Source of the DNA: Escherichia coli O127:H6 str. E2348/69
GTDB lineage: Bacteria > Pseudomonadota > Gammaproteobacteria > Enterobacterales > Enterobacteriaceae
Assembly (NCBI RefSeq): GCF_000026545.1
Contig: NC_011601.1
Length of the DNA: 64,000 nt
Reading direction: 5' to 3' (one strand)
Numbering within the stretch: position 1 is the first letter of the stretch; each line of letters starts with the position of its first letter. Shown piece by piece: positions 39,001 to 45,000 of the stretch. Made by a program: the position numbers.

Positions 39001-42000
39001 ATGCTCTGAAACAGGTCACTAATATCATCTAAATAGTTGACTCATAGTGACAGCATGTGTTGTGTCTTGCAGTATTATATAGTCTATTATTTAGATTGAA
39101 GCCATCATAATCTATTGATGTTAATGGTTTTTATTGTTTGTTGTTCGGCTTTTTATACTAATTTGAGCGAAACAAAAAGATAAAAAGTTGTTTTTCGTGT
39201 CTTTAAGTGATACCAGATGGTATTGCGCTAAATGTACCAATGGGTATACCAAGAGCACTAAAAACAAAGGGGCAACCACTTTGTAACCCCTTGATTATTT
39301 GCAGAAGCGCAGAAAATCGAACTCTGGAACCCTTTCGGGGCATCCTTTTTCAAGAATGAAGAAAAAAATAACTAAAAAATCAAGTTGTTAGGAAGTTATT
39401 CATGGCTAGTGTACCAACTCTTTTCTGGGCTAATAGCTATGATTTGTTTGTATTATTTGTCTCTGTCTCTATTATTTTTGACATCCATGCGACTTCTGAT
39501 ATTGATAATCTCAGTTGTGGAGTTCTGTCTGCGCTTCCGGGAGGACGCATATCAAAACTACTGGATCTTCTGTTAAACACTGTAAAGCCATCTACATTGC
39601 ATGTTGTTGAGTCTAAGATACAATTTTTAGTGTTACGATAATGCTAGGGCGGAAAGTTTCTTCCACTCACTAAAAGTCGAATGCATTTACGGCTAATATT
39701 TTATGAGTCGGGAAATAATGCAGACGGCTGTGTTTAATTAGATCTAGTGTGATTACAATCGGTGGTGCCGACACAGTACTTGTGGCTGTCTCAGCACGGA
39801 ACTGTTTTGAAAAACAGAACCTTGATTAGGGCTGTGTCCACATTACGTAGGTAGGATCACCCCACAGGCACCACATGTCATGCATGGATTAGGATTGAAT
39901 GATAAATCGTAAAGAAAACTGCAACACCTCGCGTGTAGCACCTGGTTAGCGAACTTTCGAAAGTACGAGTATTGTATGATTTCCAGCAGTTATCAATTTT
40001 ACGTATTAATCAGTGAATCAACAACTCGTCAGCAGACTCTCTTTGTTGTGGAATTTTTTGGAACGTGTATAGGGTAGAAATTTTTGTTTTGGGACATGGT
40101 TGGGACGCCGTAGTACATACGAACTCTGCCGAATAACGTATGATATTATTTTTTAATCTCTTGGAATACATTATAGAAACAGAATGCTCTTGGGCGATTT
40201 TTAGTGATTGTTTAAATAGCCCTGTCATGCAGTTAAAGTGGCGGGCATCCTCTTCAAGGATGGTGATCCTCAACCGCACCCATTTAGGATGCGACTATTG
40301 TGGTAGAACAATGTAAACCATAGTTAATCTGCGTGCGGATACATGCTTCATAGATAGGATATTCTGGTTTGGGTTGTGAATGTGTTGGTCATCGAGTGGA
40401 CAATAAGGTAAGAGGAGTAACTCCTGCAAAACAAAAAAAGAGTTCAACAAAATCAATCAGTTAAAAACACGAGAGATCTGTATAAAAAAGCATCGTAAAT
40501 TCTGTATTTTTCCTTTAAATATAATATGTTATTGAGTTTTGTAAAATCTACCGGTCTGGTACATGGATATCGATACCGAAGTGAAATATAAATCCAACGG
40601 CGCAGTGCTGCCTGCAGGGCGTTATTCTGACAACGTACGCCTTGACCCGTGGGTATTTATGTTCTCTGCGGGTTACCGCTTCTAATTTTTTACCATCAAT
40701 AAATATCCTCCGGCATAGCCGGAGGTTTTTCAAATGCGCCTATAAGGCTCTCTTACCAGCCGCGCCCTAACAGGCGCACACGATCTGACATTTGCATCCA
40801 ACTTCGTTACTTACGGCCCGTAAACGGGCTGCCCGGATAGGGAATCGATAACTGCTCTCCCATTTTATCCTCTTCAAGCTGGTGCTTTATGTAATCCTGT
40901 ATCTTCGCCGTGTTCTTACCCACCGTATCGACGTAATACCCTCTGCACCAGAACTCCCTGTTCCTGTACTTGAATTTCAAATCACCAAACTGCTCGTAAA
41001 GCATCAGACTGCTTTTCCCTTTCAGATATCCCATAAAGCCGGATACGCTCATTTTGGGCGGGATCTCCACAAGCATATGGATATGATCTGCACAGCATTC
41101 AGCTTCCAGAATCCGTACACTTTTCCACTCACACAGCTTTCTCAAAATACAGCCTATTGCTCTACGCTTCTCTCTGTAGAACACCTGTCTTCGGTATTTT
41201 GGCGCAAATACTATGTGATATTTACAGTTCCATCGGGTGTGCGCTAAGCTCTTTTCGTTCCCCATTGGGACCCCCTTTTGATTTCTTGTTTGACACTTGC
41301 AGTTGCCAGACCGCAAGGTGTTTTAACAAATCAAAAGGGGTTTTAATAACTGGCTCAAAGCTGAAAGCTTTCCGGAACCCCCAGCCTAGCTCTGTCTCTT
41401 ATACACAAATCCCCACCCGGGGATTTGTGATGTCTGTCAGTCTGCTTTAGGGGGACTCTTTCCATCCGGTAGTTTCCTTCCTCCCCGGCAGCGATTTTTT
41501 GAACTTTTTCCTCACCTGTTGATCTTCTCTTATATTTCATTTTCTTCGGGTCTGTTATGGTACTTTCTGATTGTTATTCATGGGCTAACGAGCAGTTTGG
41601 ACATGCCCGTCTCGGTGATCCGCGTCGTACACGACGCCTTGTGTCACTGGCCTCTTCTCTCGCTCAGCATGCAGGTCTTTCTATTGTGAAATCATCCCAG
41701 TCCACTGCTCAGGTTGAAGGTGCGTACCGCCTGATACGTAACCCGTCTGTGTCCCCGCAAGCCATTGCCGAAGCCGGATTTACCGCCACTGTAAGGGCAT
41801 GTGAGGCTCATCCGCTGCTCCTCGCGCTGGAAGACACCACCACCATTAACTTCAGTCACAGTACGGCATCTGATGACCTGGGGAATACCACCACTAACCC
41901 GAAGACGCGCGGGCTGCTGGCTCACTCTGTCCTGATGTACGCCCCCGACAGCGCCCTGCCAGTCGGTCTTATCGAACAGCAGCGCTGGAGTCGTGCCACG

Positions 42001-45000
42001 GACACCTACGGTGTTAAGCACCAGCGAAAAGAACGTCCCTATGAAGAAAAAGAAAGTTACCGCTGGCAGCAGGCTTCGGAGCGCATGGCCGAACGGCTGG
42101 GGGAGATACAGAAACGGGTAATCACTGTCTGTGACCGGGAAGCGGATATCTGGCATTACCTGCATTATAAAGTCAGCCACGGGCAGCGCTTCGTGGTGCG
42201 TGCAGCACAGAATCGCCGGCTGGAAGAAGCACCCGGCAAGCTCTTCGAACTGCCGGAAGTCCTGGCAACCGCGGGAAGCCACACGCTGAATGTGATGCAA
42301 AAAGGCGGGCGGGCAGCCCGCCAGGCCCGGATGTTCATCAGTTACAGCGAAGTCAGCATAAAAAATCCCGACAACAGCGGCCAGGCGCTCCCGCTCACGT
42401 ATGTCTGTTGCCGGGAGCAGGCAGAGGACGGCGCCTGCTGGCATCTGCTGACGTCAGAAAAAGTGGCGAGTGCCGCCGATGCGCGACGTATCGTCAGCCA
42501 TTACGAGCGACGCTGGCTGATAGAGGAATACCACAAGGCGTGGAAAAGTGGTGGTACATGTGTGGAATCGCTGCGAATGCAGACCCGGGATAACCTCGAG
42601 CGCATGGTGGTTATCAAGGCGTTTATCGCGGTGCGGGTGCTGGGCCTGCGGCAGGGCGGTATCAGTGAAGAAACACAAAATGACAGCTGTGAGAAAATAC
42701 TGACGCCGACAGAGTGGAAACTGCTGTGGGTTAAGCTGGAAGGAAAACCGCTTCCGTCACAGATGCCGACACTGAAATGGGCCTGTCTGAAACTGGCGAA
42801 ACTGGGGCGATGGCATGACAGCAAACGCACCGGTCGCCCCGGTTGGGTAGTCATGTGGGATGGCTGGTTCAGACTTCAGGATATGGTTGAGGGTTACCTG
42901 GTGATGAAGTCTCTTGATCAGGAGATCTGATCAAGAGACAGAGCCTAGCTGGGGGTTTTCTGTGCACAATAAACCGCCAGATGTTTTCTGGCGGTTTGTC
43001 TCAAATTAACGTCGTGTAGCCGCTTTCATCGGTTGTACAAAAGCTTTCAGTGCCGCCAGCATTTTCTCTGGCTCATTAATATGTTGCTCGATGATTTTAA
43101 CGATGGCCGAACCAGAAATCGCGCCTGCAGCTCCTGCATCAATCGCTGCTTTTACCTGGTCCGGAGCGGAAATACCAAATCCCTGCAATGGAGGTGCAGC
43201 GTTGTACTCTTTCAGCTTTGCAACCAGATGATTGAGGGGTAACGCGGCGCGGTTTTCTGCGCCGGTCACGCCCGCACGCGACAGCAAATAGGTGTAACCA
43301 CGACCGTAAGAGGCTATCTGGCGCAGCAAATCATCGTCGGCATTCGGTGGGCAAATAAAGATAGGTGCGACATTATGACGCAACGCGGCCTGGCGGAAGG
43401 GCGCGGACTCTTCCACGGGCACATCGGCAACCAGCACCGAATCGACGCCGACTTTCTCGCACTCGGCATAAAACTCATCAATGCCTTTGTTAAACACCAG
43501 GTTGGCATACATCAAAAGGCCGATGGGAATGGTCGGGTGCTTCTGGCGAATGAGTGCCAGCACCTCAAAGCACTGCGCCGGGGTTACTCCCGCCGCAAAA
43601 GCACGCAGTGTGGCGTTTTGAATCGTCGGGCCATCCGCCAGTGGGTCGGAGAAGGGGATGCCTAACTCCAGCGCGTCAGCACCGGCTTCAATTAGCGTAT
43701 CGATAATTTTCAACGACTGCTCAATGCCCGGATCACCGAGGGTGACGAAAGGAACGAATGCGCCTTCTTTGCGCTCCTTCAACTGGGCAAACAGAGATTC
43801 GTAGCGTTCCATCAGATTTCCCCTCGTGCTTTCAAAATATCGTGAACGGTGAAGATGTCTTTATCGCCGCGACCGGAAAGGTTAACCACCAGTAGCTGCT
43901 CTTTTTCCGGATTTTCGCGCATCATTTTCAGCGCATGGGCCAGGGCGTGGGAGGATTCCAGCGCCGGGATGATCCCTTCATGCAGGCAAAGCGTTTTAAA
44001 GGCTTCCAGGGCTTCATCGTCGGTAATAGACACGTAATCAGCGCGTCCAGTGCTGTTGAGATACGCATGTTGCGGGCCGACGGACGGGAAATCCAGCCCG
44101 GCAGAAATGGAGTAAGACTCTTCAATTTGCCCGTCTTCGGTTTGCATCATCGGCGCTTTCATACCGAAATAGATGCCCACGCGACCATGTTTTAACGGTG
44201 CGCCGTGCTCGCCAGTTTCGATACCGTGGCCGCCAGGCTCCACACCAATCAGGCCGACGTCGGTTTCGTTGATGAAATCTGCAAACATACCGATGGCATT
44301 CGAACCACCGCCAACACAGGCGATAACGGCATCCGGCAGGCGACCTTCTCTTTCCAGAATCTGCGCTTTCGTTTCTTCGCCAATCATCCGCTGAAACTCA
44401 CGCACAATGGTCGGGTAAGGATGCGGGCCAGCTGCGGTACCCAGCATATAGTGCGCGGTTTCATAACTGCCGGACCAGTCGCGTAGCGCCTCATTACAGG
44501 CATCTTTCAGGGTCGCGGAACCGCTATGCACCGGGATCACTTCCGCACCCATTAAGCGCATCCGGAAAACGTTAGGCGACTGGCGTTCAACGTCTTTGGC
44601 ACCCATATAAATACGGCATTTCAGGCCGAGCAGGGCGCTGGCAAGGGCCGACGCCACGCCATGCTGACCGGCACCGGTTTCGGCAATAATTTCAGTTTTA
44701 CCCATCCGCTTCGCCAGTAAAGCCTGACCGAGTACCTGGTTAGTTTTATGCGCGCCGCCGTGCAGCAAATCTTCGCGCTTCAGATACAGCGTGGTGTTCG
44801 TCCCGGCTGTAATGTTCTGGCATTTGGTCAGCGCGGTTGGACGCCCGGCATAGTTTTTCAGCAGGTCGTTGAACTGAGCCTGAAATTCAGGATCTTTTTG
44901 CGCGCTGACAAAAGCTTCTTCCAGCTGGCGCAGAGCAGGCATCAGGATTTGTGGCACGTACATGCCGCCAAACTCACCAAAATAGGGGTTAAGTAATGTT

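Follow-up and report, generated by a model that had tools for sequence, protein, structure and literature searches.

The ompW junction in the 64,000-nucleotide stretch of Escherichia coli O127:H6 str. E2348/69 DNA that was analysed here (the window, which is a 100% match to three E2348/69 assemblies) is best read as the ordinary right-hand junction (attR) of PP6, a prophage of the PPompW family. We consider it very probable that the whole account given here is correct, namely that the window contains attR of PP6, that ompW is intact at attL, that the host belongs to a lineage without yciE, yciF and yciG (yciEFG) between ompW and trpA, and that insertion sequences entered this interval later without causing a deletion. 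The strain, prophage PP6 and ompW as the integration site of the PPompW family have all been published, and a literature search on a prophage at ompW in E2348/69 returned no match. The main value of the analysis lies in correcting the annotation: ompW is not inactivated, no deletion is attributable to the IS elements, and this lineage should not be judged against the K-12 gene order.

The right-hand junction of PP6

Homology to ompW begins at position 40552 and ends at the stop codon at 40685, which corresponds to 43 native codons (45 if read from 40548), and the RefSeq annotation labels 40545-40685 as a partial OmpW pseudogene (Table 1). The first-pass annotation had described about 45 terminal ompW codons joined to AT-rich foreign DNA, and this arrangement is indeed seen at 40552-40685, with a G+C content of 36-47% over 33-41 kb, to the left of the fragment, and of 50-56% in the trp region. 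A 21-nt ompW core occurs once within the window against zero expected occurrences, which is no chance pattern. A search of the window for a second core that might mark a tandem prophage or secondary att site, with 3 mismatches allowed, found only the copy at 40557-40577, and thus there is no tandem att.

Table 1. Features at and around the ompW-trpA interval (positions in the window)
Feature	Position	Strand	Evidence
PP6 right arm (PPompW family), ends at attR; contains the secondary attachment site attB-in-PP_1 (21 bp, unoccupied) at 40224-40244	39631..40551	+	Homology to PPompW_132418 right end; phage-side attR flank same in both lysogens
attR core, 26 bp identical to attL; codes for conserved OmpW strand VWYMDIDT	40552..40577	+	Alignment of attL, attR, and K-12 and AVS0366 attB
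Native 3' end of host ompW (217-aa allele), displaced, without promoter or 5' part; putative non-functional remnant	40578..40685	+	99.2% identity to ompW 3' end of prophage-free strains; peptide identical in E. whittamii; pseudogene annotation
Native 50-bp ompW-trpA spacer, left 11 bp	40686..40696	.	Comparison with AVS0366 empty site
IS200C (IS200/IS605 family), interrupted by ISEc13, 711 bp without this insert; tnpA at 40807-41265 (-)	40697..42966	-	Annotation; Pfam Y1_Tnp; alignment with other IS200 copies and empty site
ISEc13 (IS4 family, IS50-like), 1550 bp; transposase 41557-42930	41392..42941	+	Annotation; Tn5 transposase match; Pfam
Native spacer, right 39 bp, with intact trp operon terminator hairpin (42971-42997)	42967..43005	-	Identical to AVS0366 spacer
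trpA, intact	43006..43812	-	ORF list and annotation

PPompW prophages are lambda-like, effector-carrying elements that reside in ompW of STEC and EPEC (Nakamura et al., PLoS Pathog 2021, PMC8112680), and the same study put their frequency at 44% among 767 complete E. coli genomes. PP6 is a lambdoid prophage of EPEC E2348/69 of ~53.2 kb that carries nleA, nleH2 and nleF, and a published account lists it together with nleA, nleH2, nleF and espO* (PMC5685641). Its integrase is identical to IntE of PPompW_132418 at 375 of 376 positions (99.7%) over the full length, where assignment to the family calls for >90% identity over >90% of the length of PPompW IntE (PMC8112680). The two prophages also have the same target gene and share the sequence of the right arm, where identity ranges from 95.6 to 99.4% (95.6% for window positions 39631-40687 against the PPompW_132418 right end). 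As in other PPompW prophages, this arm has an exchangeable effector locus, annotated with nleA, nleH and nleF, and an exact match to the 21-mer GTCATGCAGTTAAAGTGGCGG of attB-in-PP_1, a site defined in PMC8112680. Unlike the O145 PPompW phage, PP6 has nleA, nleH2 and nleF as its effectors, a truncated espO, and no nleG-espM-nleG block. PP6 may be defective because it contains an IS insertion and pseudogenes.

attL and the rebuilt ompW

The 5' part of ompW is located at the other prophage end, within an intact ompW of 639 bp (212 aa) that lies beside int and xis, ~12.7 kb to the left of the window. This ompW and the attR fragment share the identical 26-bp core CGGTCTGGTACATGGATATCGATACC, and ompW is therefore split as in other PPompW lysogens, its 3' region being directly repeated at the two ends of the prophage and the int-proximal copy being intact. 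The first-pass annotation had proposed that ompW is the integration target or has been truncated; the former holds, with the fragment at the right prophage junction, and the latter is contradicted by the intact gene at attL, which points to simple site-specific integration with no truncation of ompW in the genome as a whole. The attL junction as found in E2348/69 is present in 1563 of 5426 complete E. coli genomes (~29%). No base of the phage-supplied 3' end of ompW at attL differs between E2348/69 and the O145:H28 lysogen of PPompW_132418, and the ompW end at attR matches the allele of the respective host in each of the two lysogens. At the left margin of the core, each lysogen has two SNPs that are specific to its host, and it has them in attL as well as in attR, a pattern that would not be expected had one phage sequence simply integrated once. 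In K-12-like hosts, the att of PPompW has been published as an imperfect duplication of 121 bp, whereas attL and attR of PP6 are identical for only 26 bp and have no such near-repeat, because the host ompW is the 217-aa, whittamii-type allele.

The arrangement suggests that the tyrosine integrase of PP6 acted on attP and on the core that lies in the 3' portion of ompW, recombining the two. Because the phage carries a copy of the ompW 3' end next to int, integration would have rebuilt a full-length chimeric ompW at attL, in which host codons 1 to ~182 are followed by phage codons that specify the final loop and strand. The last 43 ompW codons of the host would have been moved ~53 kb away to attR, where they presumably persist as a dead remnant. 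Phage 21 and e14 integrate in the 3' end of icd and bring a replacement end, as other phages do at the 3' ends of their target genes. PP6 appears to behave in an analogous manner, in that insertion is within a coding sequence, a phage-borne duplicate of the 3' end keeps the gene intact, and the displaced host end stays behind at the opposite junction. The integrase and target differ from those of phage 21 and e14, however, and the PP6 replacement goes beyond synonymous sites to alter the protein sequence of a loop that is predicted to be surface-exposed.

Nested insertion sequences

The interval between ompW and trpA was correctly described in the first-pass annotation as holding an IS200-like element with a nested IS50-like copy. 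IS200C, which is ~710 bp long, is typical of the IS200/IS605 family: it encodes a 152-aa Y1 transposase (Pfam Y1_Tnp, E = 1.7e-37), has subterminal hairpins, and lacks both inverted repeats and a true target duplication, the heptamer TTTATTG being both target and IS end. Its right-end hairpin is at 40707-40725, and its left-end hairpin, CCCCCAGC-CTA-GCTGGGGG, is split at 41383-41391 / 42942-42950 by the other IS, which is unlike the usual state of the family. Because of this split, the IS200C copy is probably immobile.

ISEc13 has the ends CTGTCTCTTATACACA... and ...TGATCAAGAGACAG, which resemble the outside and inside ends of IS50 and form imperfect terminal repeats of ~19 bp beginning CTGTCTCTT, and it is flanked by a perfect 9-bp target duplication, AGCCTAGCT, at 41383-41391 and 42942-42950. 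Its DDE transposase (Pfam Tnp_DNA_bind, DDE_Tnp_1 and Dimer_Tnp_Tn5) has full-length homology to the Tn5/IS50 transposase (E = 6e-84), and the label 'IS50-like' is thus fair, although ISEc13 is a distinct IS and no part of a composite transposon. A second ISEc13 copy lies in the prophage, 37 kb away and in inverted orientation. Given that ISEc13 is nested inside IS200C, it would have arrived last. We infer that IS200C entered the spacer first, directly behind the TTTATTG heptamer that comes after the trp terminator, and that ISEc13 then inserted in the left-end hairpin of this element, creating the 9-bp duplication. The ompW/IS200 junction is found only in E2348/69, and entry of IS200C would accordingly be confined to this strain.

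The host ompW allele and the absence of yciEFG

In K-12, yciEFG are located between ompW and trpA. As had been noted from the sequence, they are missing from this interval in E2348/69: tblastn and blastn with the K-12 genes found neither the genes nor remnants in the whole window, including the region from the ompW stop at 40685 to the trpA stop at 43006, and a chimeric-query BLAST at the megablast level found none on the E2348/69 chromosome. One explanation is that the IS200-like and IS50-like elements, which now fill the interval, caused or accompanied the deletion of yciEFG and that ompW was truncated or inactivated. We regard this as exceedingly improbable. yciEFG are present in 4730 of the 5426 complete E. 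coli genomes, and an IS-free arrangement of ompW, a 50-bp spacer and trpA occurs in 682 of the 5426 (~13%), strain AVS0366 included, as well as in Escherichia whittamii. Removing the 2270-bp IS200C::ISEc13 composite from E2348/69 yields this same spacer, bar one substitution (A to T) in the T run after the ompW stop codon. The empty-site comparison thus refutes IS-mediated loss of yciEFG, and with it the suggestion of the first-pass annotation that the IS elements replaced these genes. Moreover, the intact target duplication of ISEc13 together with the contiguous flanks of IS200C means that there is no deletion scar on either element, and ompW is intact at attL. The trp terminator stretch in the spacer folds at -17.9 kcal/mol (z = -4.1), although a consensus terminator scan did not flag it. 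The absence of yciEFG is best viewed as a state of the lineage, shared with E. whittamii. The host belongs to a minority E. coli lineage with the 217-aa ompW allele, followed by the 50-bp spacer with its shared terminator and then trpA, in which yciEFG were never present, and the nested IS pair therefore deleted nothing. The allele without yciEFG may have been acquired, or maintained, through recombination with a lineage resembling E. whittamii. That ~13% of complete E. coli genomes share this junction with E. whittamii may be of interest to specialists.

A different possibility is that the ompW fragment at attR was supplied by a phage. It could have been left by a prophage that was present earlier or in tandem, or it could be an old phage scar whose formation also cost an ancestor of the lineage its yciEFG genes. 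The fragment has TEVKYKSNGAVLPAGRYSDN in place of the K-12 TTANYKLGGAQQHDS, followed in both by the conserved VRLDPWVFMFSAGYRF, so that the divergence from K-12 before the conserved C-terminus that had been reported is real. It also diverges from the phage-borne copy directly after the att core, the right arm of PP6 contains a decayed second integrase, and ompW is a hot spot for more than one phage type. The fragment is, however, identical at 129 of 130 nt to the intact 217-aa ompW of the prophage-free strain AVS0366, which is at odds with the phage-supplied gene end that the divergence had been taken to mark, and the same 3' end lies within intact ompW of prophage-free genomes and of E. whittamii. 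No carrier of the host-type 3' end was found among 50,697 phage records, where the best match (~70% identity) was to the K-12-like copies in PPompW records. Likewise, a degenerate-pattern scan for the host-type loop peptide in one genome per species gave a single match, in E. whittamii, which argues against a phage origin. The window holds a single ompW core, where a tandem prophage would be expected to leave another. A phage scar would have the divergence starting exactly at the att core, and it was ruled out because the departure of the host allele from K-12 begins around nt 241 of ompW, far to the 5' side of the core. A phage source for the attR fragment is thus very improbable. The divergent residues at attR belong to the native allele of the host lineage, and the phage-supplied end is that at attL.

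The last loop of OmpW in PPompW lysogens

Since the phage-borne replacement spans the last inter-strand loop and the last strand, lysogeny would rewrite the last loop of OmpW. At attL this loop is of the phage type, TTAKYKSGVTTVKDS, as compared with the host and K-12-like loops given above, and the strand is kept without amino-acid change. By the usual topology of 8-stranded porins, the last loop presumably faces outward. It is conceivable, though we think it unlikely, that the phage-installed loop, the same in every host background, has been selected as a form of lysogenic conversion, changing how colicin S4 or other phages recognise OmpW, as opposed to being a neutral by-product of integration. 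Retention of the strand alongside a changed loop is weakly consistent with conversion. The OmpW of PPompW lysogens is in either case a chimera of host and phage sequence whose last loop the phage encodes, which may interest specialists.

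A PPompW-family prophage in ompW

The feature is already known: it is PP6, a prophage of the ompW-integrated PPompW family, and the nested insertion of IS200C and ISEc13 beside it is strain-specific, within a lineage naturally without yciEFG. The first-pass annotation described the region correctly, and its reading of ompW as the integration target and of the IS elements as nested stands; its proposals that ompW might be truncated, that IS elements replaced yciEFG and that the phage supplied the divergent ompW end do not.

Positions 40300-43100 matched three E2348/69 (enteropathogenic O127:H6) assemblies over the full length at 100% identity, and no other record matched at above 56% query coverage. 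Window coordinates equal those of NZ_LT827011.1 minus 1,399,213. The RefSeq gene order is phage tail genes, nleA, a decayed integrase, nleH1-2, nleF, IS256 and IS3 fragments and a truncated espO, followed by the partial OmpW pseudogene, IS200C tnpA, the ISEc13 transposase and trpA. DNA to the left of the ompW fragment is AT-rich (36-47% G+C across 33-41 kb).

Features of the prophage right end and the ompW-trpA interval
Feature	Position	Strand	Remarks
ISEc13, copy in prophage	~3111-4484	-	
Tail-fibre gene 3' end and terminator, copy 1	32196-32403		
Tail-fibre gene 3' end and terminator, copy 2	33041-33199		
nleA	33581-34903	-	
Integrase	35558-36552	-	decayed, frameshifted
Tail-fibre gene 3' end and terminator, copy 3	36546-36685		92-94% identical to copy 1
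PP6 right arm	38374-40687		breakpoint at 39631
attB-in-PP_1	40224-40244		21 bp, exact match
Partial 'OmpW family' pseudogene	40545-40685		RefSeq annotation
att core, window copy	40552-40577		26 bp
IS200C	40697-42966		711 bp once ISEc13 removed; Y1 transposase
TTTATTG sites	40697-40703; 42967-42973		
IS200C tnpA	40807-41265	-	RefSeq annotation
ISEc13	41392-42941	+	1550 bp; IS50-like ends
ISEc13 transposase	41557-42930		RefSeq annotation
trpA	43006-43812	-	RefSeq annotation

An intact 639-bp ompW is present at the left prophage end, outside the window, with a lambda-type integrase and an excisionase directly after it, and an identical 26-bp block, CGGTCTGGTACATGGATATCGATACC, is common to the left (attL) and right (attR) junctions, whose cores lie 53,241 bp apart. 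The intact gene at the left end, with the same core in both junctions, is the finding that the first-pass annotation had named as refuting its reading; ompW is the integration target and has not been lost. Beyond the core, attL and attR share ~55% identity and differ in length by 15 nt.

Since the effector set nleA/nleH2/nleF/espO* is that of PP6 of E2348/69 (PMC5685641; PMC2697328), the window prophage is PP6. Its integrase is identical at 375/376 positions to IntE of PPompW_132418 from STEC O145:H28, and its terminal 2.3 kb share 95.6-99.4% identity with the right arm of that prophage. The secondary attachment site attB-in-PP_1 (GTCATGCAGTTAAAGTGGCGG), defined for the PPompW phage family (PMC8112680), is present and unoccupied. 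Of 767 complete E. coli genomes, 44% are reported to have a prophage at ompW (PMC8112680), and in the present collection 1563 of 5426 genomes share the attL junction of PP6, in which int adjoins the ompW end carried by the phage. Because integrase, right arm, attB-in-PP_1 and the frequent junction agree, PP6 is a textbook member of the described family.

attB-in-PP_1 is yecE-like and is an entry point for Stx and other phages inside PPompW prophages. The nleG-espM-nleG block of PPompW_132418 has no counterpart in the right arm of PP6, and the breakpoint falls at the truncated espO and the IS3 fragment. Copies 1 and 3 of the tail-fibre end flank nleA and the frameshifted integrase, and the nleA module seems to have been acquired at the tail-fibre end, either by integration or by recombination. 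In strain Ecol_867 (L005 4780-5170), of the same host lineage, ompW is occupied by another type of prophage, whose end carries Rha- and Ash-family genes and whose attR has a longer ompW repeat; more than one phage family thus uses ompW as a hot spot.

Phage and host origin of the ompW ends

The ompW fragment in the window ends in ...VWYMDIDTEVKYKSNGAVLPAGRYSDNVRLDPWVFMFSAGYRF, compared with ...VWYMDIDTTANYKLGGAQQHDSVRLDPWVFMFSAGYRF in K-12, and the first-pass annotation took this divergence as a possible mark of a phage-supplied gene end. A six-way alignment assigned the ends the other way round. The attL 3' end and the non-coding DNA downstream are equal base for base in E2348/69 and the O145 lysogen, so this end travels with the phage. 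The attR 3' end is not the same in the two lysogens, each of which has its host's own allele there: it is K-12-like in O145, and in E2348/69 it is identical at 129/130 nt to the allele of AVS0366, which is prophage-free and has an intact ompW of 217 aa. In its 5' part, too, E2348/69 ompW is of AVS0366 type (514/525), and the divergent residues therefore belong to the host's native allele. In the phage records searched this allele was absent, the best match having 70% identity.

A mildly novel thought is that, whatever the host background, integration swaps the last OmpW loop for one encoded by the phage, a change that might have a selected function. From general eight-stranded barrel topology, we take this loop to be surface-exposed. 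Solved OmpW structures are 2F1T, 2F1V and 2MHL.

At the left edge of the core (window 40552-40556; E2348/69 attL region, L002 6525-6529), two SNPs track the host allele, reading CGGTC in E2348/69 and AVS0366 and CAGTG in O145 and K-12, and in each lysogen the pair is found in attL and attR alike. This pattern is not what a single, simple crossover with one phage sequence would leave, and it suggests that the phage attP was matched to the host allele at that edge, perhaps because the crossover region needs identity.

Relative to K-12, the host allele is a mosaic (AVS0366, L004 4459-5162; window 40552-40696 plus 42967-43005): nt 1-240 are nearly identical, nt 241-540 share 75-87% identity, and the sequence past the core ~55%. 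Its divergence from K-12 has no onset at the att core, which argues against an ancient phage scar as its source. Among genomes sampled at one per prokaryotic species, a degenerate-pattern scan detected the loop peptide of the host allele in Escherichia whittamii only, where the 50-bp spacer known from AVS0366 again separates ompW from trpA (L010 3-394), the 3' portion of the allele and the spacer being ~96% identical. The allele and the yciEFG-less junction are common to this species and 682/5426 E. coli genomes, which points to exchange between species, through recombination with a whittamii-like lineage, or else to an old polymorphism as the likeliest source.

The ompW-trpA spacer and the nested IS elements

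In K-12, yciE, yciF and yciG lie between ompW and trpA; as the first-pass annotation stated, they are missing here, with no trace anywhere in the window. A chimeric query joining the nleA region to K-12 yciEFG matched two locations in other nleA-positive strains and only one in E2348/69 chromosomes, so the genes are, at megablast level, missing from the entire chromosome. Their replacement by IS elements is contradicted by the spacer itself. In AVS0366, 50 bp with one hairpin terminator separate the ompW and trpA stops, and in-silico removal of IS200C with its insert recreates this spacer; the only difference is a single base change in the run of T behind the ompW stop. The direct junction, free of any IS, occurs in 682 of the 5426 genomes, and yciEFG has the complementary distribution (4730/5426). 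In Ecol_867 and other lysogens of this host lineage that carry different phages, trpA likewise comes directly after the ompW fragment.

ISEc13 is flanked by a perfect 9-bp target duplication, AGCCTAGCT, and is nested within IS200C, which implies that ISEc13 arrived later. Its transposase has Tn5-type Pfam domains and aligns end to end with that of Tn5 (E = 6e-84). The left-end hairpin of IS200, CCCCCAGC-CTA-GCTGGGGG, contains the duplication in its loop and stem, and the split in this hairpin has probably immobilised the IS200C copy. The left end faces trpA, and the element inserted right behind TTTATTG (trpA strand), which forms the tail of the trp terminator; TTTATTG also terminates IS200C at the opposite side, a pattern shared with another IS200 copy compared. 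The equivalent flank in another IS200 copy is TTTTTTG. The insertion should leave termination of the trp operon unchanged, since the terminator hairpin beside trpA is preserved (-17.9 kcal/mol, z = -4.1).

The junction of the ompW end with IS200C is restricted to the three E2348/69 assemblies, and the insertions are recent, strain-specific events in the spacer. The two ISEc13 copies, one within the prophage and the other immediately beyond its end, lie in inverted orientation ~37 kb apart, and most of the prophage could be inverted if they recombined; their orientation is the same in all three assemblies.
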